Source of the DNA: a virus
Virus record (IMG/VR): IMGVR_UViG_3300044846_005100
Span: 64,001 to 128,000 of that record
Direction: 5' to 3' (one strand)
DNA length: 64,000 nt
This document shows positions 2,635 to 38,432 of the stretch, one piece after another. The notes under the pieces were generated by a model. That model was not told where the DNA came from and did no database searches. It worked only from the letters and a program-made list of their open reading frames with translations. Position 1 is the stretch's first letter. Each line of letters starts with the position of its first letter. The position numbers and the translations under genes were made by a program.

Positions 2635-3179
2635 TTTTTTATTTTTAATTTATCAAAATATTTCTTATCTTCAGCGTAACCTTTGAGAGATGTACCATTA
2701 TAAATTTCATAAATATATCTATCGAAAATACTAAAAATCCAATGGTCATAGTGTCTATAGTCATTTCTAGTTGACTTACATCCAGGTTGAGGTCTTTTAC
2801 CTGCGTTGCGCATTCCTAGCAAATTTTTATTAGTCATTACAAGTTTTGACTTTAAATTATCTGATTCCAATCTATATTGTTGTTTTATAAGATTTTTATC
2901 TTTAAAAGGAAGTTGGTCAATCAACCAATCTACTGTTTTTAAAGTTAGTGGTAAATCTTTAGATTTTGACAAGCTATCTAAATTTGATTTTAAGCACTTA
3001 ATTTCTTTAGCTTGATAACTAATCGTATCTTTTTGTTTCTGTGCATCAGCGTTAAAATAAAGCACCATTACAAGAAAAGTTATCACTACTCCTATGGTTG
3101 CTTTTTTGAAGAAATTGTATTTTATTTGTTTTTCTTCATCCAACTCCCACAAGAGAGTTTCTTTATTAAATTTGTACAT
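2631..3179 (-). CDS. membrane-anchored glucosaminidase (GH73/FlgJ-like) peptidoglycan hydrolase
   Basis: TM helix, then QYRLES, NLLGM and GYAEDKKY motifs. Confidence 0.7.
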   Translation of the reverse strand: MYKFNKETLLWELDEEKQIKYNFFKKATIGVVITFLVMVLYFNADAQKQKDTISYQAKEIKCLKSNLDSLSKSKDLPLTLKTVDWLIDQLPFKDKNLIKQQYRLESDNLKSKLVMTNKNLLGMRNAGKRPQPGCKSTRNDYRHYDHWIFSIFDRYIYEIYNGTSLKGYAEDKKYFDKLKIKK

Positions 3180-3202
3180 AATTTTAATTTTTAAATTTTT
3201 AA

Positions 3203-3293
3203 AAGAACTGTATAAACCCTACAATATACAATTTGTTAACTTTAGATTAATTTGATTTAATGTTCAAGGTTTGTAAGGTTTAAACATCTTCTT
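3203..3293 (-). terminator. long intergenic hairpin (terminator or processing site)
   Basis: Arms 3203-3224 and 3271-3293 are complementary; short T-run follows on the minus strand. Confidence 0.5.
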
Positions 3294-3621: not shown

Positions 3622-4434
3622 TTAAATTGTTTTCCATTTCCAATCACAGCTTGATTCTGATTTTGTTTGGCAAGTAAATATATTATAAGATTCTCTCCAA
3701 TTTGCTAGATAAACAATACCCTCTGGACTTTTTACTAATAATTCAACGTGTATTGGGGGTGTTTCTTCGTAAACTGTTTTCCATCTATCTTGTTCTTGTT
3801 GCCATTTAGCACCTTTAATAAACATTAATTTTTCTCTATCACAATAAGGATGAGTTATACTTTGGCAGTTTAAAATAGCAGCTTCTTCATCTATCTCTTG
3901 TTTATCCCTTTTACTGTTCAACCAATCTGTTAATGATTCTTTAGTTTCTTTAGATAATGCATTGTCTAATTTAGATTCAAGTTTTTCAAGATTTAATGGT
4001 TCTTGTTTAGGTTCTTCTTGTTTACCACAAGCACATCCATATTTACTAATAGCTTGTTTACAATTTTCACAAATTTGTTTAGTTTCTTCTTGTGGGATGA
4101 TTATTTTTCTTTTTAAATTACCATAATATGGTGGAACATCTATATCTTCTTCAAATGTTCTATACATACCATAACGTGGCTCTAATTTAATCTCAACATA
4201 TTCACAACTTGGGTTTTTTACAAACCATTCTAAAAAAGTATCATCAATAGATTGTACGCCATCTTCAATTAGCAAATTATTAGTAGTAAGTATTACTTTA
4301 TAAGCATATTGACCATTTCTATTTTTTAAAATATCTCCTGTAAATGAGCATTTTGCCCATATTCCATTTTGATTAACTTTTTCATTGTTATCTATTATAT
4401 ATAACTCGTCTTGTATTTTGTATAAATTTTTCAT
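3622..4434 (-). CDS. conserved phage protein (LEWFVKNPSCE family), apparently missing its N-terminus
   Basis: KVILTT...DGVQSIDDTFLEWFVKNPSCEYVE; mosaic C-terminus (FIKGAKWQQEQ). Confidence 0.75.
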   Translation of the reverse strand: MKNLYKIQDELYIIDNNEKVNQNGIWAKCSFTGDILKNRNGQYAYKVILTTNNLLIEDGVQSIDDTFLEWFVKNPSCEYVEIKLEPRYGMYRTFEEDIDVPPYYGNLKRKIIIPQEETKQICENCKQAISKYGCACGKQEEPKQEPLNLEKLESKLDNALSKETKESLTDWLNSKRDKQEIDEEAAILNCQSITHPYCDREKLMFIKGAKWQQEQDRWKTVYEETPPIHVELLVKSPEGIVYLANWRESYNIFTCQTKSESSCDWKWKTI

Positions 4435-4994
4435 ATTTTAGGTAAATTAAGGTGTTTCCAATATCTATTTGTTCTAATACCATCTATTGTACTGTAAGAT
4501 ATGTTATAGCTTTCTGACAATTCTTTTGTTGTAGTTCCTCTTTGCAACAAAGAATGTATTTTAATAACATCTACATCTTTTAATTTAGAATTACGATTTT
4601 CTTCTCCTTTTAAGGTTAAATTGTTTTTAATAGCGTGGTCTAAATTCTCTCTATGAGAAACCCATTCTAAATTTTCAATAGCATTATCAGTTTTATCTCC
4701 ATTAATATGGTTTACTTGAAGTTTAGATTCAGTATTATCTATAAAATGTTCTGCTACAAGTCTATGAACAAGTACCATTTTTCTTGTTGCATTTTTTTGT
4801 AAAACAACAGTTAAATAACTTTTACTTTGAGGAGATAATTTAAGTAATCTTTCTTTTCTTGAAAATTCATTTCCTAAAGATTTTACATTTCCAAAATTAG
4901 AAACTTGATAAAATGTTTCATAACCTATAATATCTTTCCAAGTTTCTTTACTAGGTTTTTTCGTTGGTAAAACCCATATATTTTTTTCTTCCAT
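4431..4994 (-). CDS. NUMOD4-HNH homing endonuclease
   Basis: ETWKDIIGYETFYQVSNFGNVKS (NUMOD4); VHRLVA...VNHINGDKTDN...NLEW..H.EN (HNH_3); C-terminal HTH. Confidence 0.92.
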   Translation of the reverse strand: MEEKNIWVLPTKKPSKETWKDIIGYETFYQVSNFGNVKSLGNEFSRKERLLKLSPQSKSYLTVVLQKNATRKMVLVHRLVAEHFIDNTESKLQVNHINGDKTDNAIENLEWVSHRENLDHAIKNNLTLKGEENRNSKLKDVDVIKIHSLLQRGTTTKELSESYNISYSTIDGIRTNRYWKHLNLPKI

Positions 4995-5273: not shown

Positions 5274-5618
5274 TTAATTTTTTTGAAAAATTCCAAATAC
5301 ATTATGTTGTGTTCTATCTAAAATAAGTGTATGTTTTAAAACTTTAAGTCCAACATCACTTGGTTCATATAATCTTACAGTATCTTTATGAGTAAAGTAT
5401 TCAAACTCCAATCCTGTAAATGATATATATCCACTTTCATAATCTCCTTCTTTAATACAAGGATACCAATTAAATCCACTCCAATATTGAATACCAAAAC
5501 TATTCTGATTGAATCTGAATTTTTTATTATTGGTTGAAATGTAATTTTCAATTGGGTTTTCATATACTTTACCACAACTAGACAAAGTAATAATTAAGAT
5601 AACTAATAGTTTTTTCAT
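5274..5618 (-). CDS. lipoprotein
   Basis: MKKLLVILIITLSSC lipobox. Confidence 0.75.
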   Translation of the reverse strand: MKKLLVILIITLSSCGKVYENPIENYISTNNKKFRFNQNSFGIQYWSGFNWYPCIKEGDYESGYISFTGLEFEYFTHKDTVRLYEPSDVGLKVLKHTLILDRTQHNVFGIFQKN

Positions 5619-5639
5619 GATTTTAATTTTTAATTAAAA

Positions 5640-6125
5640 AAAATACTCCAACCTATCTACTCGTCAGTAGCATCAGTTGGAGGGTTCTCCGCTTATTTTC
5701 TTCGTCAGAGTGCTAAGACCTATCCGCAGTGAGCATTGCTAAGAGGCTTGACAGGTACTATTCAATAAGAGGTTTCATTGTTTCTAAATAAACAATTACG
5801 TTATTGAAAAAATTCCCTTCCTTTATACGTTGTATAGGGATAACCACTCATTGCAATTTTAAAGAAATTATCTTTACAGCATTGCGAGTATCATTAAAAA
5901 CTTACATAGCCATCAAGACTTGGGATAAAATTTGGATTGTTTAACTGCCTTACTCAAGCTATTCTCACTCAATTGGGGATTCAGCTCCATTTTACCATAC
6001 TCAACAAACATAACACCTCTTGATAGTGTTGTAATGACACTGGGGACAATTTACAGGAATCGAACCATACCCATCTACCAATTCATACATTACTTGTTTG
6101 TCTTTCTCTATGTAAGTCTTTTTTT
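5640..6125 (-). ncRNA. candidate large structured RNA with tRNA-like loops
   Basis: No credible ORF; 14-bp helix AAAGACTTACATAG/CTATGTAAGTTTTT encloses nested stems and GGTTCGATTCC; ends in a hairpin plus T-run. Confidence 0.6.
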
Positions 6126-6128
6126 TTA

Positions 6129-6578
6129 TTACATCAACAATAAAAGATTGTTATTTGGGCTTACCAAAACAGATTTTGTAGGAATAACTTTGTCTTGATT
6201 ATTTTTCAAGTATGTTGAAAATTTGTTATTACCAAATAACATTTCTTCTGCATCTTGAGAGGAATTTGGGATACCTTTAACATAAGCATAAGGGTATCCT
6301 GAACAAATAGCCCCTTCAGAGTAAAAAGTAACTTTTGTTTTATAAAAACCTATTTCTCCACTTCCTCTTTTTTTATAAGCTAATATAACCTTATCTTGAT
6401 ATTCTGGAGGTATGCACGCTGAATAAATATTTCCTTCAAAATCAAATTTAGGTAAGATTACTACAACTATATCCGTTATAGGGTCAAGAGGAAGTTCCTC
6501 TATTCCATGTTCATTAAAAATATTTAGGACTTTTTCAGATGCATCCTGAGCAACTAAATTTACTCTTAATTTTCCCAT
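6129..6578 (-). CDS. hypothetical protein
   Basis: 149 aa ORF in operon. Confidence 0.75.
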   Translation of the reverse strand: MGKLRVNLVAQDASEKVLNIFNEHGIEELPLDPITDIVVVILPKFDFEGNIYSACIPPEYQDKVILAYKKRGSGEIGFYKTKVTFYSEGAICSGYPYAYVKGIPNSSQDAEEMLFGNNKFSTYLKNNQDKVIPTKSVLVSPNNNLLLLM

Positions 6579-6584
6579 ATCTTA

Positions 6585-6920
6585 TTATTTTGAAAAGTAT
6601 TTGTTAAAAGTTTCTTGTTTCACTTTTAATTCTACTTCCAAAAGAGCTTTTTGGTATTCAGCATTTATGATTTTTTCAAATCTTTCTTGACACTCCGCTT
6701 TGGTAATAGCTGACTTACCTGAATTTAAGTCTGTTTCTAAAGTAAAGTCTTCCAATTCAAAAATAGTGTCCTCAAGGGTCTCTATTTTAGTCTGAATAGT
6801 GTCTAATACTTCTTTTTGTAAGTCTCTTTTAATAGAGACTTCAAATTTACTTGCTCTTTCTTTTACTGATTTGTTTTGAGACATTAAAGTGTTTGCTCTG
6901 CTCATTATTTCTTTTGCCAT
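6585..6920 (-). CDS. hypothetical coiled-coil protein
   Basis: 111 aa helical ORF. Confidence 0.75.
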   Translation of the reverse strand: MAKEIMSRANTLMSQNKSVKERASKFEVSIKRDLQKEVLDTIQTKIETLEDTIFELEDFTLETDLNSGKSAITKAECQERFEKIINAEYQKALLEVELKVKQETFNKYFSK

Positions 6921-6947
6921 AAAAATTTGTTTTATTTTGTTAATAAA

Positions 6948-7340
6948 TTAAAGTTGTATTCCTAAGATTTCAAGGCTTATTTCATCCCATTTAGTGTCTG
7001 CTCTAAATCGTGTATCTGCTTCACCAGCAAAACATTCAATTTCTTCCTCTAATCCGTTTTCATAGGTTAAAATTAAAGTAGGAGTTGCCCAATTTGAAGA
7101 CAAATAAGTGTAATTATCATTAGTGGGCTTGCCTTTTTCAAAAATTTCACCACCTGTGAAATCCCAATCACCTTCTAAACCTGCCTCTGCTTCTAAAGTA
7201 GGATGCTCCTTAAATCTCTCTTTAATAATAGAGGCGGCTTTATCCCAATCAAAAGCTCTTTGAGGTCTACCTTGTCTCCCTGCAATCTTTGCATTATTTC
7301 CCATGAATCCTTCCGCAAAGGTAAAATTACTTTCTTTCAT
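6948..7340 (-). CDS. conserved phage hypothetical protein
   Basis: FDWDKAA..II...AEAGL..DW..TGG motif. Confidence 0.8.
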   Translation of the reverse strand: MKESNFTFAEGFMGNNAKIAGRQGRPQRAFDWDKAASIIKERFKEHPTLEAEAGLEGDWDFTGGEIFEKGKPTNDNYTYLSSNWATPTLILTYENGLEEEIECFAGEADTRFRADTKWDEISLEILGIQL

Positions 7341-7344
7341 TGTT

Positions 7345-7700
7345 TAAATTTTAATATGAATAATTAGCACCCTATTCTACTACTTGCGTTTGCTACCTCG
7401 ACCAGGTTTCCGTAATAGAATAGGGTCACAATAGTTGTGAGTGTGTAGTTTAATCTACCATTTAGTTTCATCTAACTATCTTGCTGATAACTCCCAATAC
7501 CATAGCATTTACATTCCGCTACATTAAACAAGCATATATCATGTATCTTGTGTGTATTCTGCATATTACTATGCAGTTTCAATCAGGGTTTAGATTATTT
7601 TAAGTTAATAATTTTTTTCTATGGGCTACTAAACCTTTTATAGTAGCAAATTTTTTCAAAAAAAAATGTCAATGAACGCTATTCCCCGAAGGGATTTTAT
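7345..7700 (-). ncRNA. structured non-coding leader or ncRNA
   Basis: Series of hairpins including CTGCATA-GTAA-TATGCAG and a 15-bp stem 7369-7426 capped by a junction. Confidence 0.5.
7666..7695 (-). promoter_or_regulatory. boxB/boxA-like antitermination element
   Basis: Minus strand ATCCC-TTCG-GGGAAT hairpin followed by AGCGTTCATTGACAT. Confidence 0.5.
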
Positions 7701-7710
7701 TTTGATTTGT

Positions 7711-7887
7711 TTAAGACTCTCTCAAACAAATTTCTTTTTTTCTTTCTTCTTGGTAATGATACCAATCTTTTTGTGTTTTTGTTAAAGGCTTTTCTTTTTT
7801 ATCTCTCTCGGAAGCTAAGTATCCTTCATCATAAATCCTTGCATATACTTTAGGAAAAACTTTTTCGATTATTTTTTTTACTACCAT
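7711..7887 (-). CDS. hypothetical protein
   Basis: Start reassigned to MVVKK, downstream of the promoter. Confidence 0.6.
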   Translation of the reverse strand: MVVKKIIEKVFPKVYARIYDEGYLASERDKKEKPLTKTQKDWYHYQEERKKEICLRES

Positions 7888-10422: not shown

Positions 10423-10776
10423 TTATTTGTTTTTTAATAATAAATTAATTTGTTCTAATTGTGCTTCTTTTACAAATTGATAATCTTCTGCACCAACTGC
10501 ATTTTCCAATACCTCTTCAATTCCGTCTTCAAATCTATTGTAGCCTACAATTTTTCCGTCTCCTGCATTAATTATTTTTGCACATTCAGCATAATCATCC
10601 TCCCAAAGAGCAAAACACAATTTCTTTCCAAAGGCAATGTTATACACATACTTCGGGCATCTTATTTCTTTTTCAAGGTCAAACAATGCTTGTCCTACTT
10701 CGTCATCGTGCTGAAATAGGTCATATAATTCCATTTTGTTTTTTAATGCTTCAAATTTTTCTTTAATGTTTTTCAT
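10423..10776 (-). CDS. hypothetical protein
   Basis: 117 aa acidic ORF. Confidence 0.7.
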   Translation of the reverse strand: MKNIKEKFEALKNKMELYDLFQHDDEVGQALFDLEKEIRCPKYVYNIAFGKKLCFALWEDDYAECAKIINAGDGKIVGYNRFEDGIEEVLENAVGAEDYQFVKEAQLEQINLLLKNK

Positions 10777-10782
10777 TTGCTT

Positions 10783-11016
10783 TTATCTATTTATTCTAAC
10801 GTGTCCAAAATAAGTTTCTTCTAAATTCTCTATAATTCGGTCATTCACTAAGTCCATAAATGTCGATATTTCATAATAGCCTAAATGCTCCTCTTCATCG
10901 CTTGTCATACCTAAGTTTTTCAACTCATCTATCATTTCGTGGGTATTATCAAATACTTGATTTTCGATTTCTTCTAAAATTCTTCTATTTTCTAATAATA
11001 ATACTATAATTTTCAT
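10783..11016 (-). CDS. small acidic hypothetical protein
   Basis: 77 aa; YEISTFMDLVND. Confidence 0.7.
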   Translation of the reverse strand: MKIIVLLLENRRILEEIENQVFDNTHEMIDELKNLGMTSDEEEHLGYYEISTFMDLVNDRIIENLEETYFGHVRINR

Positions 11017-11022
11017 AATTTT

Positions 11023-11253
11023 TTATTTAACTAATTCTTTAATTATATCTTCTACTTCTCCTTCTTCTAAAGCATCACAAATGGAATTAAACTCTCTTCC
11101 ATTTTCTTCTTTAGTTATTCCTCTTAGTCTTGCTATCTCATCAAGAAGTCCTATTATTTCCACGTTACTTTGTGGATTAGGAGATAAAAATCTTGATTCA
11201 GTTTCGTTATTTTGAGCTATATATTTTAACAGCTCTTTCCATTTGTCTTCCAT
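11023..11253 (-). CDS. small acidic hypothetical protein
   Basis: 76 aa ORF. Confidence 0.7.
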   Translation of the reverse strand: MEDKWKELLKYIAQNNETESRFLSPNPQSNVEIIGLLDEIARLRGITKEENGREFNSICDALEEGEVEDIIKELVK

Positions 11254-11256
11254 AAA

Positions 11257-11484
11257 CTATTGAATTTTACTTGTTTTTAAATTTTCTATTGTTATAAATC
11301 TAATTACATCAATGCTTGAATGTATTTCCTCTTCATTGAAAGCACGTTGGAATCCTTCTAAGGTATAAACTCTACCTTGTCTTTCACATTCATCCATCCA
11401 TTCTTTTTCTGTTAATTCCGTAAATCCTTTGTCGATTGAAATATCTTGACAATCTAAAACATATACTCTAATTTCTTTATTCAT
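11257..11484 (-). CDS. small hypothetical protein
   Basis: ECERQGRVYTLEGFQRAFN motif. Confidence 0.7.
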   Translation of the reverse strand: MNKEIRVYVLDCQDISIDKGFTELTEKEWMDECERQGRVYTLEGFQRAFNEEEIHSSIDVIRFITIENLKTSKIQ

Positions 11485-11506
11485 ATTTTTTTTATTTTAA
11501 TTGTTC

Positions 11507-11713
11507 TTAATAATTATCCTGCAATCCTTCATACCAAAAGTCAGGGAAGTCACAAGGCTCACTACTGAAACCACAAACACAATTAATTTCTTCATCATCT
11601 GTGTTGCAAAACATAACATCCCCACAACCACCACAATTAACTAAATTTACTCCTATTGCTTGTATTTTCTCTTGGAAGGCTATTTGGCTTATTGCAAACT
11701 CTCTTTTTGTCAT
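11507..11713 (-). CDS. small Zn-ribbon protein
   Basis: CxxC...CxC; paralog of the N-terminus of 11725-12243. Confidence 0.7.
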   Translation of the reverse strand: MTKREFAISQIAFQEKIQAIGVNLVNCGGCGDVMFCNTDDEEINCVCGFSSEPCDFPDFWYEGLQDNY

Positions 11714-11724
11714 AATTTTTAATT

Positions 11725-12243
11725 TTAATATAAACCACTTTCTTGTTCAAAAATACACTCTGCTATAATCCAATCCGAATCCTCTCCATAAATTTCAATG
11801 ATTTCCTCCACGCTATTATAATAAGAGGAAATGTGTTCTTCTATTTCTTCTTCTGTGTAATTGTCTAAGTTTATATAACTCTCAATAAATTCATCATCCT
11901 CATACTCTGGCAACTCTCTATTTTTTTCTTTAAACTGAAAATATCTTTTATCAAGTTGTCTTCCGTATTGTTGATTATCTAAATCTGTACATTTCCAACC
12001 TAGCTCCTCCATTATTTTTTCTGAATTAAATTCAGCACTATCTTCTAATCCTTCATACCAATAGTCTTGGCAATCGTTGAAATATACTTTTTCTCCACAA
12101 CCAAAACATTCAGTTTCTTCCTCGTTTATATCGTGCATTATGATTGCTGAACATTCATTACATTCTACAATATTTATATTGGCAAATTCTTGGATTCTTT
12201 TTTGCAATTCTATTTGTCTTATTGCTAATTCTCTTCTGTCCAT
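11725..12243 (-). CDS. Zn-ribbon fused to a highly acidic domain
   Basis: CNEC...CFGC then a D/E-rich C-domain. Confidence 0.75.
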   Translation of the reverse strand: MDRRELAIRQIELQKRIQEFANINIVECNECSAIIMHDINEEETECFGCGEKVYFNDCQDYWYEGLEDSAEFNSEKIMEELGWKCTDLDNQQYGRQLDKRYFQFKEKNRELPEYEDDEFIESYINLDNYTEEEIEEHISSYYNSVEEIIEIYGEDSDWIIAECIFEQESGLY

Positions 12244-12257
12244 TATTTGATAAGTTT

Positions 12258-12470
12258 TTAGTTAATACATCCTTTTACAAATTTCTCAATAGCTTCATCC
12301 CAATCTAAATCCTCGTCTTCCCATTTGTGGTCTTCGGGATATATGAAAATAAATCTTTCTGCGATTGTGATAGCGGTATCTATTTGTTGGAAAAAACTAC
12401 CATTAATTTTTTCTTCTAATAATTGGTTGTACATTATGTAACCTACCACTCTTGCTAATTCCTTATTCAT
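12258..12470 (-). CDS. small acidic hypothetical protein
   Basis: 70 aa; WEDEDLDWDE. Confidence 0.7.
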   Translation of the reverse strand: MNKELARVVGYIMYNQLLEEKINGSFFQQIDTAITIAERFIFIYPEDHKWEDEDLDWDEAIEKFVKGCIN

Positions 12471-12471
12471 A

Positions 12472-12684
12472 TTATTTGATATGTTTTAATGAATATAAAC
12501 TCGTCCAAATATGAGCAAATCCTTTCTCTACACAGAAGTTGTATAAATCTTTGTCTGACATTCCTTCAAAATCATGGTCATCAAACATAGTAGATAATTC
12601 TTCCTCACAATGTGTTCTTTCATCCTCTATATAAAAATTTACTACTGAAATTATTGAGGTACGTTCTTCTCTTCCTATGGTCAT
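12472..12684 (-). CDS. small acidic hypothetical protein
   Basis: 70 aa ORF. Confidence 0.7.
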   Translation of the reverse strand: MTIGREERTSIISVVNFYIEDERTHCEEELSTMFDDHDFEGMSDKDLYNFCVEKGFAHIWTSLYSLKHIK

Positions 12685-12688
12685 AATA

Positions 12689-12997
12689 CTATTGGTTTAA
12701 ATCGTTAAAAAATATTGAATAAATGAATTCGTAGATAGCCACCATATCATCGGTTTCTAAGTCTCCTAAATCCGTTTCTGTGTCATCGGATGTACGGATA
12801 ATAATCAAGTTTCTACGCATTTCTATTTCTTTCACTACTTCGGGGGAATAACAATCTCCCACTACTACAATAGACACATCGTCTTCCTTACTTACTGATA
12901 TGATACTATCTGTTTCAATAATTTCAGAGCAATCTTTTAAAATATTTGCTCTAAGCGTTTGGATAGTTTCATTATAATCTACAAATTGTTTTTTCAT
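12689..12997 (-). CDS. acidic hypothetical protein
   Basis: 102 aa; first gene after a boxed promoter. Confidence 0.7.
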   Translation of the reverse strand: MKKQFVDYNETIQTLRANILKDCSEIIETDSIISVSKEDDVSIVVVGDCYSPEVVKEIEMRRNLIIIRTSDDTETDLGDLETDDMVAIYEFIYSIFFNDLNQ

Positions 12998-13026
12998 ATT
13001 CTTTTTATTTTAAATAATTAATTTAC

Positions 13027-13116
13027 TGCAAAATTACTACCTTTTGGTGTTTGGGTGTTACAACTTTTGTTGCAATTTATTTAATTTTTGTTGCATTATT
13101 TTGATAATTTTGTTGA
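13027..13116 (-). promoter_or_regulatory. early promoter with tandem TGCAACAA boxes (copy 5)
   Basis: TAATTTTGCA 13027-13036; boxes at 13067 and 13088, degenerate third at 13110. Confidence 0.8.
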
Positions 13117-13157
13117 TACAAAGGCTATCAAGAATAATATGCCCATAATACAAACTC

Positions 13158-13736
13158 CTAACCACATACCACATTTTTTATATATCTTTTTTTCATTGAA
13201 ACAAATATTTCCAAAGTCTTAAATTTAGATACTAAACAATCTTCACTAAATTGTAACTTGCTACCCATGATAGGACTATCTCCATGTCCATTTGTAACTT
13301 TTTGGCAAATCTCTTCTGCTTTTTCAGAAGTGAATTGAGTAGGCTCAATAGACATTGTGGTACAAATTTGTTTATTATTATCCACTCCTAAAGAAATACA
13401 AGTTTCTTTATAATAAACAATAGTGTTACATCGTTCCAAACAAGGATATTTTTTGATATTATCAATTATTTTCTCTAATTGACTTATACTTTTTTCAGTA
13501 AATTCAATTATGGAAGACATTTCCTTGATATTGGTAGCAAAAGGGTCTGCTATATCATGGATGATGATTCCATTTTCAGTTTGTTGGGCAAACTTATTTT
13601 GATTTTCTAATAGTGAATAATATTCTTTTTTGTCCATTGTGTACCCTCCATTATTTGAATAGCCCATATTCTGTGGGAGTTGTCCTACATTTGTTTCTTG
13701 AATCGCATAATCTGCGTTTGTTACTAATTTGTGCAT
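13158..13736 (-). CDS. hypothetical protein (GYSNNGGYTM module fusion)
   Basis: N-terminus paralogous to 20022-20186. Confidence 0.75.
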   Translation of the reverse strand: MHKLVTNADYAIQETNVGQLPQNMGYSNNGGYTMDKKEYYSLLENQNKFAQQTENGIIIHDIADPFATNIKEMSSIIEFTEKSISQLEKIIDNIKKYPCLERCNTIVYYKETCISLGVDNNKQICTTMSIEPTQFTSEKAEEICQKVTNGHGDSPIMGSKLQFSEDCLVSKFKTLEIFVSMKKRYIKNVVCG

Positions 13737-13755
13737 AATATATAATTTAATTTTT

Positions 13756-14172
13756 TTAATCTAAAAATAATGATGTAATATCTTCTACATGAACAATATC
13801 CTCCTTGCTAAATAGTACTTGATAATCTCCTTCTAAATAATCCTTCACTTCAATTAATAATACTTTAAAATCATGATTGGTTAGCAAAAATTTCAACTCT
13901 TCCTTTATAATCCATTGGTAGAAACATTCAAGGTTTTTATAAGCACAAAATCTACCTTTCATTATTTTATCATCAAATACATCTCTATTTATATATTTTC
14001 CTCCATTAATTCCTGCATCCTTAAAAGGTGCTGGTAATTCCTCATGTAATTTAAGCATATTTTCTGTTTCAGAAGTTTTCCCTAAAACATATCTATCGGA
14101 ATCAATAGCTCTATTGGCTCTAAACATTCCATATCCGTCTGTGTGTTCTACTCTAACTATTTTCTTGTTCAT
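13756..14172 (-). CDS. conserved phage early protein, possible ADP-ribosyltransferase-like fold
   Basis: RVEH..G.G, H...P.P..D, FCAY, QW, QVLF motif pattern; the ORF is solid, the fold is speculative. Confidence 0.4.
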   Translation of the reverse strand: MNKKIVRVEHTDGYGMFRANRAIDSDRYVLGKTSETENMLKLHEELPAPFKDAGINGGKYINRDVFDDKIMKGRFCAYKNLECFYQWIIKEELKFLLTNHDFKVLLIEVKDYLEGDYQVLFSKEDIVHVEDITSLFLD

Positions 14173-14201
14173 ATTTTATTATTATTGGTTAAAAAATATA
14201 G

Positions 14202-14269
14202 TGCAAAATTATGATGTTTTGGGATTCTATCCTAACAATTTTGTTGCAATTAGTTTAAATTTTGTTGCA
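14202..14269 (-). promoter_or_regulatory. early promoter with tandem TGCAACAA boxes (copy 4)
   Basis: TAATTTTGCA 14202-14211; boxes at 14241 and 14262. Confidence 0.8.
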
Positions 14270-14429
14270 TTGTTTCTAACTTCGGGATTAACTCTTCAAG
14301 TAACTCTTTTTTACCTAAAAAAAATCCATAAGATTCCGTATCTTCATAATTCATTACATCGGGTGTATTATCTATTATGTTAGAATACTCCTCTAGTCTT
14401 TCTTTTAATTCTTTTATAAGATTTTCCAT
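14250..14429 (-). CDS. small hypothetical protein (59 aa, not in ORF track)
   Basis: MENLIKELKERLEEYSNII...MQQNLN*. Confidence 0.65.
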   Translation of the reverse strand: MENLIKELKERLEEYSNIIDNTPDVMNYEDTESYGFFLGKKELLEELIPKLETMQQNLN

Positions 14430-14460
14430 TTTTTATGCTTTTATTGTGAAATAATTTTGA

Positions 14461-14817
14461 TTATGCTTCTTTTGAGGAATTATACCATTGTACAAATTCA
14501 ACACAAGCGTTATAAACTGCTTCAATTTTAGTATTGCAATCATTTGAAAAAGCAAACCCATTCTCTATATATACATCAATAGCACAACCTTGTGGCGCAA
14601 ATAATACATTTGTAAATTCATTATAGTTTTCTATCTTCTCCACTACTTGCATAAGCCAATTCCAATCGGTGTCGTATTTTGTACAATCTAAAAATCTATC
14701 AGTATGCCATTTTTTATGATTAGGAGTATTTTCAAAACCCCAAAATCCTTCATTATTTTGGTAGCAACCCATAAACTCTGCTAATAACTTATTATTTTCT
14801 ATAATTTGTGTATTCAT
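14461..14817 (-). CDS. conserved phage protein (LLAEFMG...DWNWLM.VVEKI family)
   Basis: Paralog of the C-terminus of 15073-15642. Confidence 0.75.
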   Translation of the reverse strand: MNTQIIENNKLLAEFMGCYQNNEGFWGFENTPNHKKWHTDRFLDCTKYDTDWNWLMQVVEKIENYNEFTNVLFAPQGCAIDVYIENGFAFSNDCNTKIEAVYNACVEFVQWYNSSKEA

Positions 14818-14818
14818 T

Positions 14819-15064
14819 TTAACAATAATTTAGTATAAAATTTATTAATTTTTCATCAACTCCTTTAGCCTCCAATTCTCTATAAACATGGTCAGCATCT
14901 AAGCATTCACTTATCCACTTGTTACCATTTATATCTAAAAAGCCTATAACATATCCACTATTCATTTCTCCTTCAACTTCGGGAGTTTTCCAAAAGCCTG
15001 CCATTGAAATTTGTTCGTTTGGGGTGCTTATCGACACACATTTCTTAAAATCTATTTCTTGCAT
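14819..15064 (-). CDS. hypothetical protein
   Basis: 81 aa ORF in operon. Confidence 0.7.
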   Translation of the reverse strand: MQEIDFKKCVSISTPNEQISMAGFWKTPEVEGEMNSGYVIGFLDINGNKWISECLDADHVYRELEAKGVDEKLINFILNYC

Positions 15065-15072
15065 AATTTTAG

Positions 15073-15642
15073 TTATTTATTTTGATTATAATGTTCAACA
15101 AAAGAAACACAACCATTGAAAACTCCTTCGATATTCAAATCCGCCAATGAATAATAAATTTTTTCATAATCTTCCCCCATAAATTCACTTAATGAATAAC
15201 ATTTTTTTACCACTTCTACAAGCAAATTCCAATCCGAATCGTATTTTAAATATCTTGCAATATTCTCAATTATCTTTTCTTTTTCTATTTCTCGTGTGAA
15301 ATAATAAGGGCTATCACTCCATGAATAATGCCCTCCATGATATGAAAGATTATCAAATACTCCCATAAATTCTGCCAACAATTGTTTTTTTGCTACTATG
15401 TCCGTAATGGAAACTATTTCTTTTAACTCAATTTGAGATAAATCCATATCTATTGTAAATCCTAAGGTAACATCACAACTATTAAAAACATGATTTGCTT
15501 TTTCAAGATTATAAGTAATCTCTTTTTTTGCCATTTCTAAAGCCTCTTCTCTACTATCTGTATATACTACTCCATTATCGAAAGAAGTCCATATTGTGCT
15601 TGTAGTTAAGCTATATTCCCATTTTTTGTTTGATTGATTCAT
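15073..15642 (-). CDS. two-domain hypothetical protein
   Basis: C-terminal LLAEFMG...KYDSDWN. Confidence 0.75.
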   Translation of the reverse strand: MNQSNKKWEYSLTTSTIWTSFDNGVVYTDSREEALEMAKKEITYNLEKANHVFNSCDVTLGFTIDMDLSQIELKEIVSITDIVAKKQLLAEFMGVFDNLSYHGGHYSWSDSPYYFTREIEKEKIIENIARYLKYDSDWNLLVEVVKKCYSLSEFMGEDYEKIYYSLADLNIEGVFNGCVSFVEHYNQNK

Positions 15643-15653
15643 TTTTTTAATTT

Positions 15654-15989
15654 TTAATAAGTTAAACTATCTAAATAAGTGCTTGGAAATTCCCACGTTA
15701 TATCCTCATAAACTCGTTCTACAAATTCATTGATAAATTTATCATCTATTGTAGGCATAACTCCGTCATAGGATTCTAATAGATATTCCTTTGCTTCTTC
15801 TTTGTTAAGCCAATTAGTAACAACTTCTTTTATTCTATTCCTACTATAAACATCGTCTATATCCTCTGCATTTTCGGGAATATAACAAGGTGCATCGGGG
15901 TTATTTTTGAAATTTTCATCGTTATAATACCCTCCCTCCGCATTGGATTCTAAGCCGTATTTTTCTATTATTGTATTTAAATTTTCCAT
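15654..15989 (-). CDS. acidic hypothetical protein
   Basis: CYIPEN...WEFPSTYLD. Confidence 0.75.
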   Translation of the reverse strand: MENLNTIIEKYGLESNAEGGYYNDENFKNNPDAPCYIPENAEDIDDVYSRNRIKEVVTNWLNKEEAKEYLLESYDGVMPTIDDKFINEFVERVYEDITWEFPSTYLDSLTY

Positions 15990-16255
15990 TTTATATTTAA
16001 AATTGATAAAGATTTTAAAAAATTAATAACTTTTTCTTTTTCTTCTTGTGTAGCCTTCGGGAACATACCATAGTCAGAAGTAAAAAAGCTACTACCTACA
16101 AATCCTAAATTGTTTTCTTCCATTTCAAAAGATATATCTTGTATCTCGTAACAATCAATTGGCTCATCTCCCCAAAATAACTTATTTTCAGCATCCGCCA
16201 TAGTTACTATATGAATATTTCCATTAATGTTTAAAAATTCTATAATTTGCTCCAT
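15977..16255 (-). CDS. hypothetical protein
   Basis: 92 aa ORF. Confidence 0.7.
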   Translation of the reverse strand: MEQIIEFLNINGNIHIVTMADAENKLFWGDEPIDCYEIQDISFEMEENNLGFVGSSFFTSDYGMFPKATQEEKEKVINFLKSLSILNIKWKI

Positions 16256-16257
16256 AC

Positions 16258-16524
16258 TTATTTGTTTAAATGATTATTACCTAATAAAATTATATCTGTC
16301 TCTATTATATCTTCTTTGGTATTAAACTCTTGAAATCTTAAATCAAAATTAAGATTATTATCTACTAATAATTTTATATATTGATTCATTTCTTCAATTT
16401 GCCAAATTTCAAAAAATTCATCGGGTTTTACTCCTGCAATTCCATTTGTTTTATCGCACCAAATAGTATAATAAAATGTATTTTTATCTTTTACTGATTC
16501 TAATAAGTTTTTTAAATTTTCCAT
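16258..16524 (-). CDS. hypothetical protein
   Basis: 88 aa; first gene after a boxed promoter. Confidence 0.7.
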   Translation of the reverse strand: MENLKNLLESVKDKNTFYYTIWCDKTNGIAGVKPDEFFEIWQIEEMNQYIKLLVDNNLNFDLRFQEFNTKEDIIETDIILLGNNHLNK

Positions 16525-16557
16525 TTTTTATGATTTTTACTTGTTAAATAATTTTAC

Positions 16558-16626
16558 TGCAAAGTTACTGCGGATTCTATTCTCAATGTTAGCAATTTTG
16601 TTGCAATTTTATTAATTTTTGTTGCA
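16558..16626 (-). promoter_or_regulatory. early promoter with tandem TGCAACAA boxes (copy 3)
   Basis: TAACTTTGCA 16558-16567; boxes at 16598 and 16619. Confidence 0.8.
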
Positions 16627-16634
16627 ACTTTATT

Positions 16635-16952
16635 TTAATTATTTTTTATTGTGTTTGGTTTAGGCTCTGCCATACTATCCTTTGAGGCACTACCTCCTTC
16701 GGGAACAACAAAGTCTTTTTTATCACTATTATAATAATACTTTTCTGCTTCCTCTATCTCGTGTACATAGGCTAATTTCAAATCTATCTCTCCGTTTTCT
16801 ATGCACATGAGTCTAATTAGTTTATCGGGTGCATAGTCTTCGGGTATTACCTCCACTCCCATGATAGGAAAAATTATTTTGGTGCTTTCAGGTACATATA
16901 CCATTGGCGTACCTGCCTTGCAACACTTAATTAATTCTTTTATAGTCTTCAT
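16635..16952 (-). CDS. hypothetical protein
   Basis: 105 aa ORF. Confidence 0.7.
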   Translation of the reverse strand: MKTIKELIKCCKAGTPMVYVPESTKIIFPIMGVEVIPEDYAPDKLIRLMCIENGEIDLKLAYVHEIEEAEKYYYNSDKKDFVVPEGGSASKDSMAEPKPNTIKNN

Positions 16953-16955
16953 ATT

Positions 16956-17636
16956 CTATTGATTTTCTACTTTTTTATAGATACTCTCTCCGTTGCTAAA
17001 CGTTGCTAAACGTCCGTACTCTTCACTTGATTCTTTAAAGGCTTTTTCTACCATTTCAATTGCTTCTGCCTTTGTTTTTTCTACCCATTTAACTATGTTT
17101 TTAGCTTGCATAGCTTTTAAGCCTGCGTTCATTTCTGTAGTATATAAAAACTCCTCTTCCACTCTGTCCTCGTCTATTTCATAGCCGTTTATCATAACAT
17201 CATATTCCCAATCCAATGTAGCACCCTCGTAATAACCTGCCACGAGTTGCATTGTTATTTCAAAGGTACATTCTATATCCCCGAAATTTTTACTTTTTTG
17301 CATTTCAAAGAAATTTGTACAAGGATAATTTCTATCCATATCGCATTTATTTACGCAATAGCCATACCATTTTTTATACAAAGGATTTTCTTTTAATTTC
17401 TCGATAGTACAATCTTTTTGATGTTCTATATCATCTAAATCTATCTCTTCGGTTTCTACTCCCTCTGAAAGCATATTGTGTCCACAACTTTGGCACTCGT
17501 TTAATGTATCTAAATCATATTCCCAATCTCTATGTATTTCCTCACAATCTTGACAAACTTTTGTTTGAATCTCTTGGTTTGTAAGTACTACAAAGTAGTT
17601 GCTTGCGTTTGTTTTTGCGAAATTACTTGCACCCAT
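16956..17636 (-). CDS. conserved Bacteroidetes-phage early protein with Zn ribbon
   Basis: MGASNF, CxxC x2, GYYEGATLD, FSNGESIY. Confidence 0.75.
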   Translation of the reverse strand: MGASNFAKTNASNYFVVLTNQEIQTKVCQDCEEIHRDWEYDLDTLNECQSCGHNMLSEGVETEEIDLDDIEHQKDCTIEKLKENPLYKKWYGYCVNKCDMDRNYPCTNFFEMQKSKNFGDIECTFEITMQLVAGYYEGATLDWEYDVMINGYEIDEDRVEEEFLYTTEMNAGLKAMQAKNIVKWVEKTKAEAIEMVEKAFKESSEEYGRLATFSNGESIYKKVENQ

Positions 17637-17642
17637 ATTTTT

Positions 17643-17891
17643 TTATTTTTTAGTGTTATTTAATGTTTTTCTGAAATAATATTGTTCAATGTATCTCAAA
17701 GTATCTATAGCTTTAGATGATATTCTATCTTTGCCTATTTCAAACCCTATACTTTTAAGATAGGCTTTCTTTGTTTCTATACTATGAATATCTAAAAGAT
17801 TTTGACTATTTAGCCAATTAAAATAATGTGTATTTTCAATTGGAATACTTGTATCTATATCTTTAATTTTGAATAACGTATTTTTAGCCAT
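17643..17891 (-). CDS. hypothetical protein
   Basis: 82 aa ORF. Confidence 0.65.
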   Translation of the reverse strand: MAKNTLFKIKDIDTSIPIENTHYFNWLNSQNLLDIHSIETKKAYLKSIGFEIGKDRISSKAIDTLRYIEQYYFRKTLNNTKK

Positions 17892-17914
17892 TTTAAGCGT
17901 GTTTATTTTTGTTT

Positions 17915-17945
17915 TGAATAAGAACGCCCACTCAAGGACGTTCTG
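17915..17945 (-). terminator. hairpin, possible intrinsic terminator
   Basis: Minus strand AGAACGTCC-TTGAGT-GGGCGTTCT followed by TATT. Confidence 0.5.
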
Positions 17946-17970
17946 TTTAAATTTGCTATATTAGAGTAGC

Positions 17971-18381
17971 TTAATTGATAGTAGGTAGATAGTTTAAAAA
18001 ATAATCTTCATCAAACCATTGCATAGTACCTTTATAATTATCATTGTATATTAATACTCCATTTGATTCAATTGATTCATAGTGTACCAATACGGCTATG
18101 GACTCTTGAAACGTGTCCTTACAAAGTATTTTTGTAGTGTCAAACAATATAGTGGCTAATTCCTCTACAAAAAAGTCTACATAAATTTTAACCACAATTG
18201 TAGGTTCTATTTGTAGCACTCCATTGGATTCATATTTACCTTCTCGCAATTGGCACAATATTTCAGTATTGTTTGCTTTTAAGCCTCCATACAATTCAAT
18301 GATTCTGTCTTTTGTTTTTTCAAAATCTAATTTGCCTAACGTTCCAATATTCATACCAACGTTTAATTCTATTTTACGCAT
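17971..18381 (-). CDS. putative S-adenosylmethionine lyase (T3 SAMase-like anti-restriction protein)
   Basis: Start MRKIEL after the promoter; GKYE...EPTIVV...LC...QESIAV...GVLIY parallels T3 SAMase GCYRE...EKTVRV...AC...QDCVLV...GLVY. Confidence 0.6.
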   Translation of the reverse strand: MRKIELNVGMNIGTLGKLDFEKTKDRIIELYGGLKANNTEILCQLREGKYESNGVLQIEPTIVVKIYVDFFVEELATILFDTTKILCKDTFQESIAVLVHYESIESNGVLIYNDNYKGTMQWFDEDYFLNYLPTIN

Positions 18382-18414
18382 GTTTTTTTCTTTTTTAATG
18401 ATTAATAAATATGA

Positions 18415-18482
18415 TGCAAAATTACTACCTTTGTGTATTGTGTCCAACAAGTTTTGTTGCAAAAAACACAACTTTTGTTGCA
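18415..18482 (-). promoter_or_regulatory. early promoter with tandem TGCAACAA boxes (copy 2)
   Basis: TAATTTTGCA 18415-18424; boxes at 18454 and 18475. Confidence 0.8.
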
Positions 18483-18486
18483 ATTC

Positions 18487-18717
18487 TTAATAAGTTTTAT
18501 TTTTATATAGGCTTGAAATTCTTTGGTTACGCACCCTTGTATTTGTCTTTCTTACTGAAATTCTTATCATTTCAATAAAAGATACTACCAAAAATAAACA
18601 TCCATAAGATACAATAAAGATATAAATATCAAAGTGCAATATATCTAAAATCATTGCGTATGTACTTGATATTATTGTTATTGTGCTAATAGCCAGCACT
18701 AAAATTGTTTTTTTCAT
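18487..18717 (-). CDS. small two-TM membrane protein
   Basis: Two hydrophobic helices and a basic tail. Confidence 0.7.
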   Translation of the reverse strand: MKKTILVLAISTITIISSTYAMILDILHFDIYIFIVSYGCLFLVVSFIEMIRISVRKTNTRVRNQRISSLYKNKTY

Positions 18718-19941: not shown

Positions 19942-20021
19942 ATTTTTTATTTTTACTACTTGCACCCCGAAAGGTGCAACGCTTTTGGCTTAAAGTCTAT
20001 TTATAGTTGCCAAAACAACTT

Positions 20022-24960: not shown

Positions 24961-25031
24961 GCCTCTATGACCGAGTGGCTAGGTGTAGGTCTGCAAAATC
25001 TATTACGGAGGTTCGATCCCTTCTGGAGACT
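24961..25031 (+). tRNA. tRNA-Cys(GCA)
   Basis: Cloverleaf: anticodon arm TAGGT-CTGCAAA-ATCTA, T arm GGAGG-TTCGATC-CCTTC, U73 discriminator; one acceptor mismatch; CCA not encoded. Confidence 0.85.
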
Positions 25032-25058
25032 CTTTTTAAAACAAAAAACATTAAAATT

Positions 25059-36854: not shown

Positions 36855-38432
36855 ATGAAATTATCACAAAGTAAATTCGGTATCATAAAAGCTCCTACGA
36901 TTACAGGTGATCGTAACTGGGGTATGAACTATACCAACCTAAACAACCTATATCAAGCAGGTTTGATCAAAACTGACGTTGATGCATTAGGTGGAATGGG
37001 TCAGTTGGCTTCTATGAAAACATTGTTCGATGGAACATCTCCATTGTTGGAGCTTGCACAAGGTTCTGACACTATCACTGTTGAAGGTGACAAAGTAGAA
37101 TGGGAATTCATGGTTTCAGGATACAGACCAGCTCTTATCGTTGAAGACGTTGAACCAGGAAACTTAACTAAAGGTATTGCTCAAAGAGAATTCAAAATCA
37201 AACTTGATTTGGGTACTTATGTTGAGGGTGATACATTGGTATTCACTGACAGCAAAAAATTCAACATGCGTGTAAGTAAATCTCCAGTTAAAGAAGGTTC
37301 TTTCACAGTGTACACAGTTAAATTGATGACTGACAGCCCTAATTTGTTCGTAGACAACAGTTTGTTTACACCAGGAACAAGGGTTATGAAATTGCACTCT
37401 ACTTATTCTGAGGCTTCTGTAAAAGGTGGTTCAATGAGTGTTGATGCTATCGGTAAAATTAAATTCCGTTCTGGATTGACAAGATTTAGAAAACAATACC
37501 AAATGACAGGAGATGCTGCTCAACGTAGATTGAATGGTAACTTGTCTGAGGCAGATTTGTTGATCTTGGCAGGTAGAAAAGCAGGAGAGAGCCAACAAGC
37601 TTTCCAAACAAGAATTGCTAATGCTTTGAACAAAAAGAATACAGGTAACATGTATATCACTTCAGTAGCAGAGGTTAAATTCAACAAAGAATTTGAAATG
37701 GAAAAAGAACTTCACTTGATGTATCAAAGAAGTACTTCTACAGTAATTGACGAATCTACAGGATACTTTGTAAATCAAGGTCCAGGTCTTCAAGAGATTT
37801 TGGAAGATGGATACAGAGAGTACTACAATACATTCTCTATCGGTCTTATCAAAGACTTCTTGCAAGATATTTTCTTCGGAAGAGTTGCTTACGATCAAAG
37901 AAATGTTGTAATGTGGACAGGAGAGATTGGATTGAGATTGTTTGATGAAGCTATCAACCAAATCACTCAAGGTTTCTTCAAAGACATGAAAGATTATTTC
38001 ATCAAAACTGACGGAACTTCATTAGTACCAGGTGGACCAAGTGGATTGTCTTACACTGAAACTCCTTGGACTCAATACAAATTGAAATTTGGTGGTTCAT
38101 TGACAGTTATGCACATGAAAGCTTACGATGACGTTACATTCAACACTATCTTAGATGAGAATGGTTATCCAGCAGAATCTTCAAGATTCACATTTGTAAA
38201 CTACGGATTGGGAGATGGTTTTGGTAAAAATATTTCTTACTTGAAATCTAAGAGAGATGTTGCTTACGGATTTGAAGGTGGATTGTCTAGCCCTTACGGA
38301 AACAACCAAGGTTCAATGATGTCTCACTCAGGTGACTTCTGGACTGTACATAGAATGGAATACGCAGGTATCATGGTAAAAGATGTTACAAAATGCGGTG
38401 AGTTGATTCCAGCAGTATTAAGAGGAAAATAA
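36855..38432 (+). CDS. major capsid protein
   Basis: 525 aa; high-expression codon usage; GPGLQE, VMWTGEIG; followed by a terminator. Confidence 0.88.
   Translation: MKLSQSKFGIIKAPTITGDRNWGMNYTNLNNLYQAGLIKTDVDALGGMGQLASMKTLFDGTSPLLELAQGSDTITVEGDKVEWEFMVSGYRPALIVEDVEPGNLTKGIAQREFKIKLDLGTYVEGDTLVFTDSKKFNMRVSKSPVKEGSFTVYTVKLMTDSPNLFVDNSLFTPGTRVMKLHSTYSEASVKGGSMSVDAIGKIKFRSGLTRFRKQYQMTGDAAQRRLNGNLSEADLLILAGRKAGESQQAFQTRIANALNKKNTGNMYITSVAEVKFNKEFEMEKELHLMYQRSTSTVIDESTGYFVNQGPGLQEILEDGYREYYNTFSIGLIKDFLQDIFFGRVAYDQRNVVMWTGEIGLRLFDEAINQITQGFFKDMKDYFIKTDGTSLVPGGPSGLSYTETPWTQYKLKFGGSLTVMHMKAYDDVTFNTILDENGYPAESSRFTFVNYGLGDGFGKNISYLKSKRDVAYGFEGGLSSPYGNNQGSMMSHSGDFWTVHRMEYAGIMVKDVTKCGELIPAVLRGK

Follow-up and report, generated by a model that had tools for sequence, protein, structure and literature searches.

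A cassette of structured RNA modules in a crAss-like phage, with a candidate new RNA family and a toxin-less abiF-like hairpin

In this study, a gene-free gap of 510 nucleotides (nt) was analyzed in a 64,000-nt stretch of viral DNA (hereafter the window), which comprises bases 64001-128000 of the 140-kb IMG/VR virus record IMGVR_UViG_3300044846_005100, rated complete by CheckV. The gap separates the minus-strand genes 6129-6578 and 5274-5618 and was originally predicted to yield a single, highly structured RNA of approximately 480 nt with transfer RNA (tRNA)-like loops. On balance, sequence comparisons favour a cassette of separately evolving non-coding RNA modules that would share one terminator. 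The gap holds at least three predicted units, namely module A (6121-5896), the lineage-specific hairpins of modules B and C0 (5892-5760) and module C (5758-5636). Module A is, as judged from its alignment, a previously uncatalogued family of structured phage RNAs, and module C resembles the abiF motif, an RNA that holds the AbiF ribonuclease (RNase) toxin inactive. We lean, if only a little, toward an overall reading in which module C would serve as a decoy antitoxin and module A as a trans-acting RNA. The original observation is real but was mis-parsed, and its idea of a decoy fits the 3' module for another reason.

Modular organization of the gap

The cassette reads on the minus strand, as do both flanking genes, and no open reading frame (ORF) of at least 40 amino acids (aa) was present on the minus strand of the gap; neither flanking gene had a Pfam or PHROG match. 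The proposal that a non-coding structured RNA is specified by the minus strand of a phage was supported. Its division into at least three separate units is indicated because the 3' part and the 5' part each occur without the other in other phages, and the single RNA of approximately 480 nt was therefore abandoned. The 3' 145 nt of the gap were 82% identical in the viral contigs L063 and L098, where they lie directly behind an unrelated ORF and the 5' part is missing. Moreover, phages were found that carry the 5' part (module A) without the abiF-like module.

The upstream 149-aa protein had no relatives among the viral contigs and two in the protein database, which led to the loci L123-L125. 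In L123, a contig from a Joint Genome Institute (JGI) metagenome, a relative of this protein (66% identical) is followed by a gap of 757 nt. The first 214 nt of that gap aligned with window positions 6121-5896, with blocks of near-100% identity between diverged or deleted stretches. Furthermore, the window gap from 5850 to 5612 reappeared in L123 at approximately 95% identity (by eye), including the abiF-like hairpin and the terminator. The non-coding blocks of the two sequences are thus nearly identical, compared with 66% for the adjacent protein. Relative to the window, L123 carries insertions at 6667-7640, which consist of approximately 190 nt after module A, then approximately 130 nt, a tRNA-Met (7073-7148) and an HNH_3 endonuclease gene (7204-7617), and these insertions suggest a shuffling of RNA modules driven by homing endonucleases.

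The minimum free energy (MFE) fold of the minus strand of the gap reached -115.4 kcal/mol (z = -2.05), and the plus strand gave z = -0.76. Single-sequence folding is only weakly better than chance, and the main structural support comes from the homologues. All helices named in the original prediction were present on the minus strand where they had been placed and were recovered in the MFE fold. A scan for sigma-70 promoters stayed at chance level, and a terminator scan missed the real terminator owing to its long loop. Comparison of the whole gap with the INPHARED phages (blastn, distant setting) gave no match.

Module A, a structured RNA family of large phages

Module A (5896-6121, minus strand) is predicted to be a structured RNA of 226 nt composed of the closing helix P1, the helix P2, a variable hairpin P3, the hairpin P4, a variable hairpin P5 and a candidate pseudoknot, and it scored 206 bits with the covariance model R1. 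In P1, the 5' strand (6108-6121) pairs with the 3' strand (5896-5909), which is followed by a short U run. This 14-base-pair (bp) helix, named in the original prediction, was paired in 100% of cases among the six sequences, with 6 of its 14 pairs changed on both sides. Across the family, P1 is 12-14 bp long and is followed by a short purine-rich junction. The 8-bp P2 (6095-6102 with 6003-6010) encloses P3 and P4, so that nested three-way junctions are formed; its 8 pairs were all kept with changes of the G-U type only, and one G-U pair was present in 6/6 members. In P3 (6031-6093), the base of the stem is conserved with compensatory changes, and the interior (40-95 nt) is unrelated in sequence among the members. 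P5 (5923-5996) likewise keeps its base pairs, with its interior replaced from one member to another. Among the stems listed originally, GTAATG/CATTAC showed compensatory changes, ACAAACA/TGTTTGT and AACAC/GTGTT were kept with changes of the G-U type only, and GGTAA.../...TTATCC was conserved at its base and variable in its interior.

P4 (6012-6030) carries an invariant loop (6018-6024) complementary to the junction at 5912-5918, and the two could form a candidate pseudoknot of 7 bp. All 7 pairs were kept in the rows that have both letters (one row lacks one column), and the sole variation was a change from A-U to G-U. The 3' strands of P4 and P2, the invariant P2-P5 junction (5997-6002) and the 5' strand of P5 make up a 31-nt block without any difference among five of the six members and with one loop substitution in the sixth (L157). 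This near-identity holds across crAss-like carriers and a jumbo phage without a crAss capsid. By our own reading of the letters, the junctions 5997-6002 and 6103-6107 may form a motif similar to loop E or the sarcin-ricin loop.

In the alignment of the six sequences, 99.5% of the cells were standard pairs, compared with 33-46% when the partners were slid by 1-3 columns. Of the seven pairs with changes on both sides, six lie in P1, and the observed covariation score was not attained in any shuffle. Moreover, G-U pairs kept in all members point to the minus strand as the transcript.

The five homologues besides the window are L123:6453-6666, L135:1320-1525, L138:1583-1787, L136:42-281 and L157:6751-6957. 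Those other than L123 were found by pattern scans, and the same scans also returned chance matches (L158 and L161-L163). The carriers include an 80-kb contig (L135/L137), a 68-kb contig (L136) and contigs of 32 and 43 kb (L157/L160), of which the 32-kb contig carries a gene for a crAss-type capsid. L138 sits in a complete 430-kb phage that has terminal repeats and lacks the crAss capsid. Module A occurs in unrelated phage lineages, in crAss-like phages (G000 and G159) as well as in this 430-kb phage, and R1 detected one copy per genome. Under strict filters, R1 matched none of four Bacteroidales genomes and none of 151 sampled Bacteroidota genomes, and a pattern scan of genome contigs for module A found nothing.

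The family appears new. A search of Rfam 15 over 5896-6121 gave no match at E up to 10, including the GOLLD, ROOL, HEARO and ribozyme models. Among the homologues, no Rfam match was obtained in L123, L136 and L138 (E up to 5) or in L157, L140 and L141 (E up to 0.1).

What follows module A differs among the phages. An RNA ligase gene starts approximately 25 nt downstream in the jumbo lineage, a gene for a small membrane protein lies downstream in L136, and further ORF-poor RNA follows in L157, L123 and the window. A linkage to RNA ligase was considered and rejected, since only the jumbo-phage lineage has the ligase directly downstream and the window genome has only a weak ligase-like match elsewhere. 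Upstream, a clear -7 box of the Bacteroidota type ends 10 nt before P1 in L141, and a version with one mismatch lies at the same distance in the window and in L123. In L136, a match to a permuted (two-piece type) transfer-messenger RNA (tmRNA; RF04321) reached 51 bits, with a cut-off of 47; it lies at 1518-1779, 1.2 kb downstream of that contig's module A homologue, and a tRNA comes after it at 1811-1884.

Module C and the weighing of explanations

Module C (5758-5636, minus strand) comprises an abiF-motif-like hairpin (5718-5755), a second hairpin (5687-5710) with a 5-bp stem and an invariant 14-nt loop, and a bipartite intrinsic terminator (5636-5682). The terminator has a lower stem, an upper stem with a tetraloop and two compensatory pairs, and a U run at 5636-5643; the start codon of the next gene lies 17 nt further on, at 5618. 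The final hairpin and T-run noticed originally are this terminator, with covariation in its upper stem, and the CCTGTC/GATAGG stem is the outer stem of the abiF-type hairpin. Apart from a trivial 7-nt A/T unit at 5621-5635, no tandem repeats were found, unlike in ToxI-type antitoxin arrays with their direct repeats of 30-40 nt.

At gathering thresholds, Rfam returned nothing in the gap. In a permissive search, the hairpin matched the abiF motif (RF03085) with 31.6 bits, short of the gathering score of 37 (regional E = 0.0019, genome-wide E = 5.3e-5), so that a match to a known family was obtained in part, for the 3' module and below the curated threshold. The 20-nt core of the window hairpin is identical to that of L148, L149 and L154. 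These identical-core copies, from Parabacteroides faecalis and Bacteroidales metagenome-assembled genomes, score 43-56 bits and lie behind Bacteroidota promoters, 25-30 nt upstream of Abi_2 proteins of 297-300 aa (E = 1e-50 to 1e-53). Two features lower the score of the phage copy, namely an atypical 3' linker, with similar linkers in a minority of the viral copies, and an outer stem rich in A and U. Furthermore, no Abi_2 gene was matched in the complete 140-kb phage genome, and the related module C contigs G003 and G004 held no Abi_2.

The three-part unit was found in six distinct viral sequences (the window, L123, L063/L098/L168, L173, L165 and L170). In their alignment, 98.7% of the positions were paired with four compensatory pairs, and compensatory changes fell in both the outer and the inner abiF stem, including a swap of A-U to G-C in the latter. 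These copies form a phage subfamily of their own. A divergent copy was observed in a 106-kb viral contig (L165:4274-4399, minus strand), where several core substitutions and a 2-nt insertion are accompanied by the inner-stem swap that keeps the pairing; its second hairpin and terminator are unchanged. More widely, a degenerate pattern of the abiF core, with outer stems that covary, was present in at least 119 viral contigs, and Abi_2 was encoded by one of the 71 ORFs downstream of viral copies of this pattern. The additional flanking strings that many of the viral copies (L002-L120) have in common suggest that the abiF hairpin is the centre of several larger phage RNA subfamilies.

The window phage is assigned to the crAss-like phages, as an environmental member of the Crassvirales with a genome of approximately 140 kb. 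Its ORF 36855-38432 (plus strand) matches the Crassvirus major capsid family, its portal (33057-35570, plus strand) shares approximately 30% identity with crAss-like phage portals, and phages of Bacteroides, Flavobacterium and Cellulophaga are among the 128 matching phage records. Abi_2 was detected in 31 of 301 sampled Bacteroidota genomes. The host phylum is consistent with a decoy of AbiF because the capsid and portal are crAss-like with relatives in Bacteroidota phages, and because Abi_2 occurs in Bacteroidota.

By analogy with characterized antitoxins, the chance that module C acts against a host AbiF is put at about even. The phage would make module C during infection as a surrogate antitoxin, and module C would occupy the host AbiF once the labile antitoxin RNA of the host runs down. 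The abortive-infection RNase would then stay inhibited, by the same logic as in the pseudo-ToxI of phage PhiTE, and this precedent makes antitoxin mimicry the most economical mechanism. For module A, a role as a trans-acting decoy or binder is tentatively proposed. It would bind a conserved factor of the host or the phage, and we favour a further decoy, or a sponge, that would act on some RNA-directed function of the host. It is rather unlikely that the whole cassette is an anti-defence RNA operon in which module A is a second new RNA effector, spread horizontally between unrelated Bacteroidota phages. In such an operon, module A may be a decoy or inhibitor of a defence RNase, a ribosome-rescue factor or an RNA-repair factor, or a new self-processing ribozyme that releases the downstream decoys.

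Several points weigh against the favoured reading of decoy antitoxin and trans-acting RNA. The module A family consists of only six sequences, its pseudoknot and core are too nearly invariant for a covariation test of them, and module A has no tie to any partner and could still be a ribozyme or act in cis. The high identity between the window and L123 may partly reflect recent transfer and not selection. For module C, the score below the curated Rfam threshold, the 3' linker off consensus and the weak outer stem leave AbiF binding putative. Moreover, a recognisable abiF motif was present at only one of the six best Bacteroidota Abi_2 loci inspected, and the exact-core copies linked to Abi_2 come from gut Bacteroidales, whereas the phage looks freshwater (freshwater-1 RNA). 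Promoter use, co-transcription and processing of the cassette have all been inferred from sequence.

The original prediction had combined a D-loop-like and a T-loop string into a mimic of the tRNA elbow, in which one RNA of approximately 480 nt would show both loops to tRNA-binding host factors or defence nucleases. The phage does invest heavily in tRNAs (26 genes), and the T-loop string is present at 6056-6066, inside P3. However, a canonical arm-like hairpin with a 7-nt loop was formed in L123 only, and in the window the loop adjoins a degenerate stem and no canonical T-arm appears in the fold. The string is absent from four of the six members (L135, L138, L136 and L157), the insert that holds it is hypervariable, and the D-loop-like string has changed even in the nearest relative, L123. 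ARAGORN found no tRNA or tmRNA in the gap (the only tRNA of the window is at 24961-25032), and the Rfam models for tRNA, tmRNA and the Y-RNA-like YrlA had no match in 5300-6500 even at E up to 10. When the T-loop and the P4 loop were combined in one pattern, all matches were tRNAs with ribosome-binding sites behind them. As modules A and C are also found apart, the tRNA-elbow mimic is largely refuted as a property of the family and was rejected as such; as an explanation it is very unlikely. The T-loop would be a lineage-specific ornament of a variable hairpin and not part of the functional core. The proposed decoy for host defence agrees with module C, as a toxin-less RNA of the abiF antitoxin type, and not with mimicry of tRNA. 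A coding function is the least credible of the alternatives. Minus-strand ORFs of 29 aa (6001-6090, with a CxxC...CxxC pattern like that of a zinc ribbon) and 32 aa (5913-6011) do exist, but the former overlaps P3-P4 and was rejected because in L123 the frame differs and the first cysteine pair is deleted; in addition, the indels among homologues are not multiples of three, and conservation tracks helices and not codons. It is scarcely more probable that the blocks were conserved as DNA-level signals and not as RNA, for instance as a promoter, an origin, or a site where packaging takes place or injection stops. A TAnnTTTG-type box does lie in the invariant core at 6005-6012, and the region belongs to the early arm of the genome, but such boxes occur at chance density in the window (136 observed against 117 expected), and the compensatory changes and strand-specific G-U pairs indicate selection on the fold of a single-stranded minus-strand transcript.

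A cis-acting or catalytic module A, which would be a processing or self-cleaving ribozyme, a stabilising 5' cap or a riboswitch-like leader, is unlikely but deserves more weight than the preceding alternatives. As is typical of aptamers and ribozymes, its junctions are invariant, its peripheral hairpins vary and a candidate pseudoknot links a loop to a junction; it always lies 5' of the next unit, be it the RNA ligase gene, the small membrane-protein gene or further RNAs, and the same phage carries a pistol ribozyme. On the other side, module A matches no ribozyme or riboswitch model, has no evident expression platform or alternative pairing, and precedes functionally unrelated genes, which argues against a metabolite riboswitch. 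A hammerhead-like reading of the junctions was dropped because the order of the conserved strings does not fit. A retron-like closing helix was also set aside, since the downstream genes vary and none of those checked encodes a reverse transcriptase, no whole-genome search for such a gene having been made. Doubtful, too, and somewhat more so than a catalytic module A, is the view of the abiF-like hairpin as a relic or as a structural element of a generic kind, for instance part of a terminator or attenuator acquired by recombination, with no role against AbiF. Its score under the threshold, its atypical linker and the lack of a known AbiF partner for the host would agree with this view. Nevertheless, the unit of three hairpins is kept in six distinct viral sequences with compensatory changes within the abiF stems, its region is conserved in L123 despite the diverged neighbouring proteins, its core is identical to copies in a functional Abi_2 context, and a separate, complete terminator follows the hairpin. 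A decoy antitoxin in module C is the reading that we retain.

Genomic setting and comparison with known systems

Between modules A and C lie two smaller elements on the minus strand. Module B is a small hairpin (5845-5892) whose counterpart in L123, by our reading, is at approximately 6870-6930 after the insertion of approximately 190 nt; there the inner stem differs in sequence and still pairs, in a segment that the automatic alignment did not align. Module C0 comprises lineage-specific hairpins (5760-5844), including an 8-bp stem (5801-5808/5761-5768), and is approximately 95% identical by eye to L123:7640-7725, compared with 66% for the flanking protein. A 21-nt probe from C0 matched no other viral contig.

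The GC content is approximately 29%. A pistol self-cleaving ribozyme (65.1 bits, gathering score 34.5) was observed at 19954-20020 (minus strand) in the same leftward arm as the cassette. An HNH endonuclease gene (4431-4994, minus strand; PHROG 59, E = 1e-48), situated two genes downstream of the cassette, parallels the HNH gene inserted within the L123 cassette. Outside the window, in L144 of the same genome, the 26 tRNA genes are clustered at 10682-18540 (30.7-38.5 kb of the genome), and a freshwater-1 RNA (RF02979, 86 bits) lies at 18023-18084.

AbiF is a toxin-antitoxin system of type III that is thought to be ancestral to Cas13, and its RNA antitoxin was characterized only in 2025. If module C neutralises AbiF, antitoxin RNA mimicry, for which PhiTE and ToxIN provide the experimental case, would be a common strategy in nature, as the core is present in at least 119 viral contigs and the toxin in almost none of them. 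Module A is a well-supported structured RNA family without a catalogue entry that is common to crAss-like and jumbo phages, and its near-invariant 31-nt core and possible pseudoknot make it tractable for studying the abundant non-coding RNAs of large Bacteroidota phages. Were the cassette an anti-defence operon, large phages would counter abortive-infection nucleases with arrays of structured RNAs and not with proteins.

Among known RNAs of bacteria and phages, the Y-RNA-like modules of the YrlA type and further tRNA-like modules combine a long closing stem with a tRNA-like domain that has a T-arm. Module A is similar to them in its end-to-end closing helix and, in the window and L123, in its T-loop hairpin. 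Unlike YrlA, it has no equivalent of the acceptor or D-arm, its T-loop is not a family feature, and it has no Rfam match.

The crAss-like Cellulophaga phage phi14:2 produces two intergenic long non-coding RNAs (lncRNAs) around its tmRNA (g004-g005 and g005-g006), which appear early, persist and exceed most mRNAs in abundance (bioRxiv 10.1101/2020.03.07.982082). The phage kind is the same, namely Crassvirales on Bacteroidota, and so is the kind of locus, an ORF-free structured RNA in a neighbourhood of RNA genes. When R1 was run with filters off on phi14:2 (NC_021806, 1200-6000), the best score was 11.7 bits and no homologue of module A was found. With nhmmer, homologues of a part of the phi14:2 lncRNA (NC_021806, approximately 3030-3215) were detected in L123:4889-5104 (E = 1e-12), 1.3 kb upstream of module A, and in L157:7150-7301 (E = 3e-5), approximately 200 nt after module A. 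These pieces near module A point to islands of several unrelated structured RNAs in such phages. In the syntenic gap of the window (7330-7724), only the flanks of the L123 region are kept and the phi14:2-like piece is missing; elsewhere in the same genome (L144:17398-17723), a weak nhmmer match was observed to the L123 intergenic region that carries it.

The AbiF (Abi_2) protein is a HEPN RNase toxin that is inactive when bound by its cis-encoded abiF-motif RNA, which also acts in trans (PMC12373285; PMC12737573; PMC13064643). Module C has the same plan as the abiF motif (RF03085, AbiFr), with stems of 6 bp (outer) and 3 bp (inner) and a conserved loop, but no Abi_2 toxin gene adjoins it, and an extra hairpin and a separate terminator stand in the place of the toxin ORF. 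In the searchable literature, a toxin-less phage copy is mentioned only as an "abiF sRNA" (small RNA) in cyanophage S-CREM1 (PMC12197685), and no paper was found that proposes anti-AbiF decoys. The closest precedent for the proposed mechanism is the pseudo-ToxI of Pectobacterium phage PhiTE, an RNA mimic of the ToxI antitoxin that was shown by genetics to permit escape from ToxIN (PMC3475682). There the toxin is ToxN and the antitoxin ToxI is an array of tandem repeats, whereas here the target would be the HEPN RNase AbiF, the RNA is a single hairpin and the effect is the one expected by analogy. Like pseudo-ToxI, module C is a phage-borne, toxin-less look-alike of a type III RNA antitoxin, and the mechanism proposed for it is the same.

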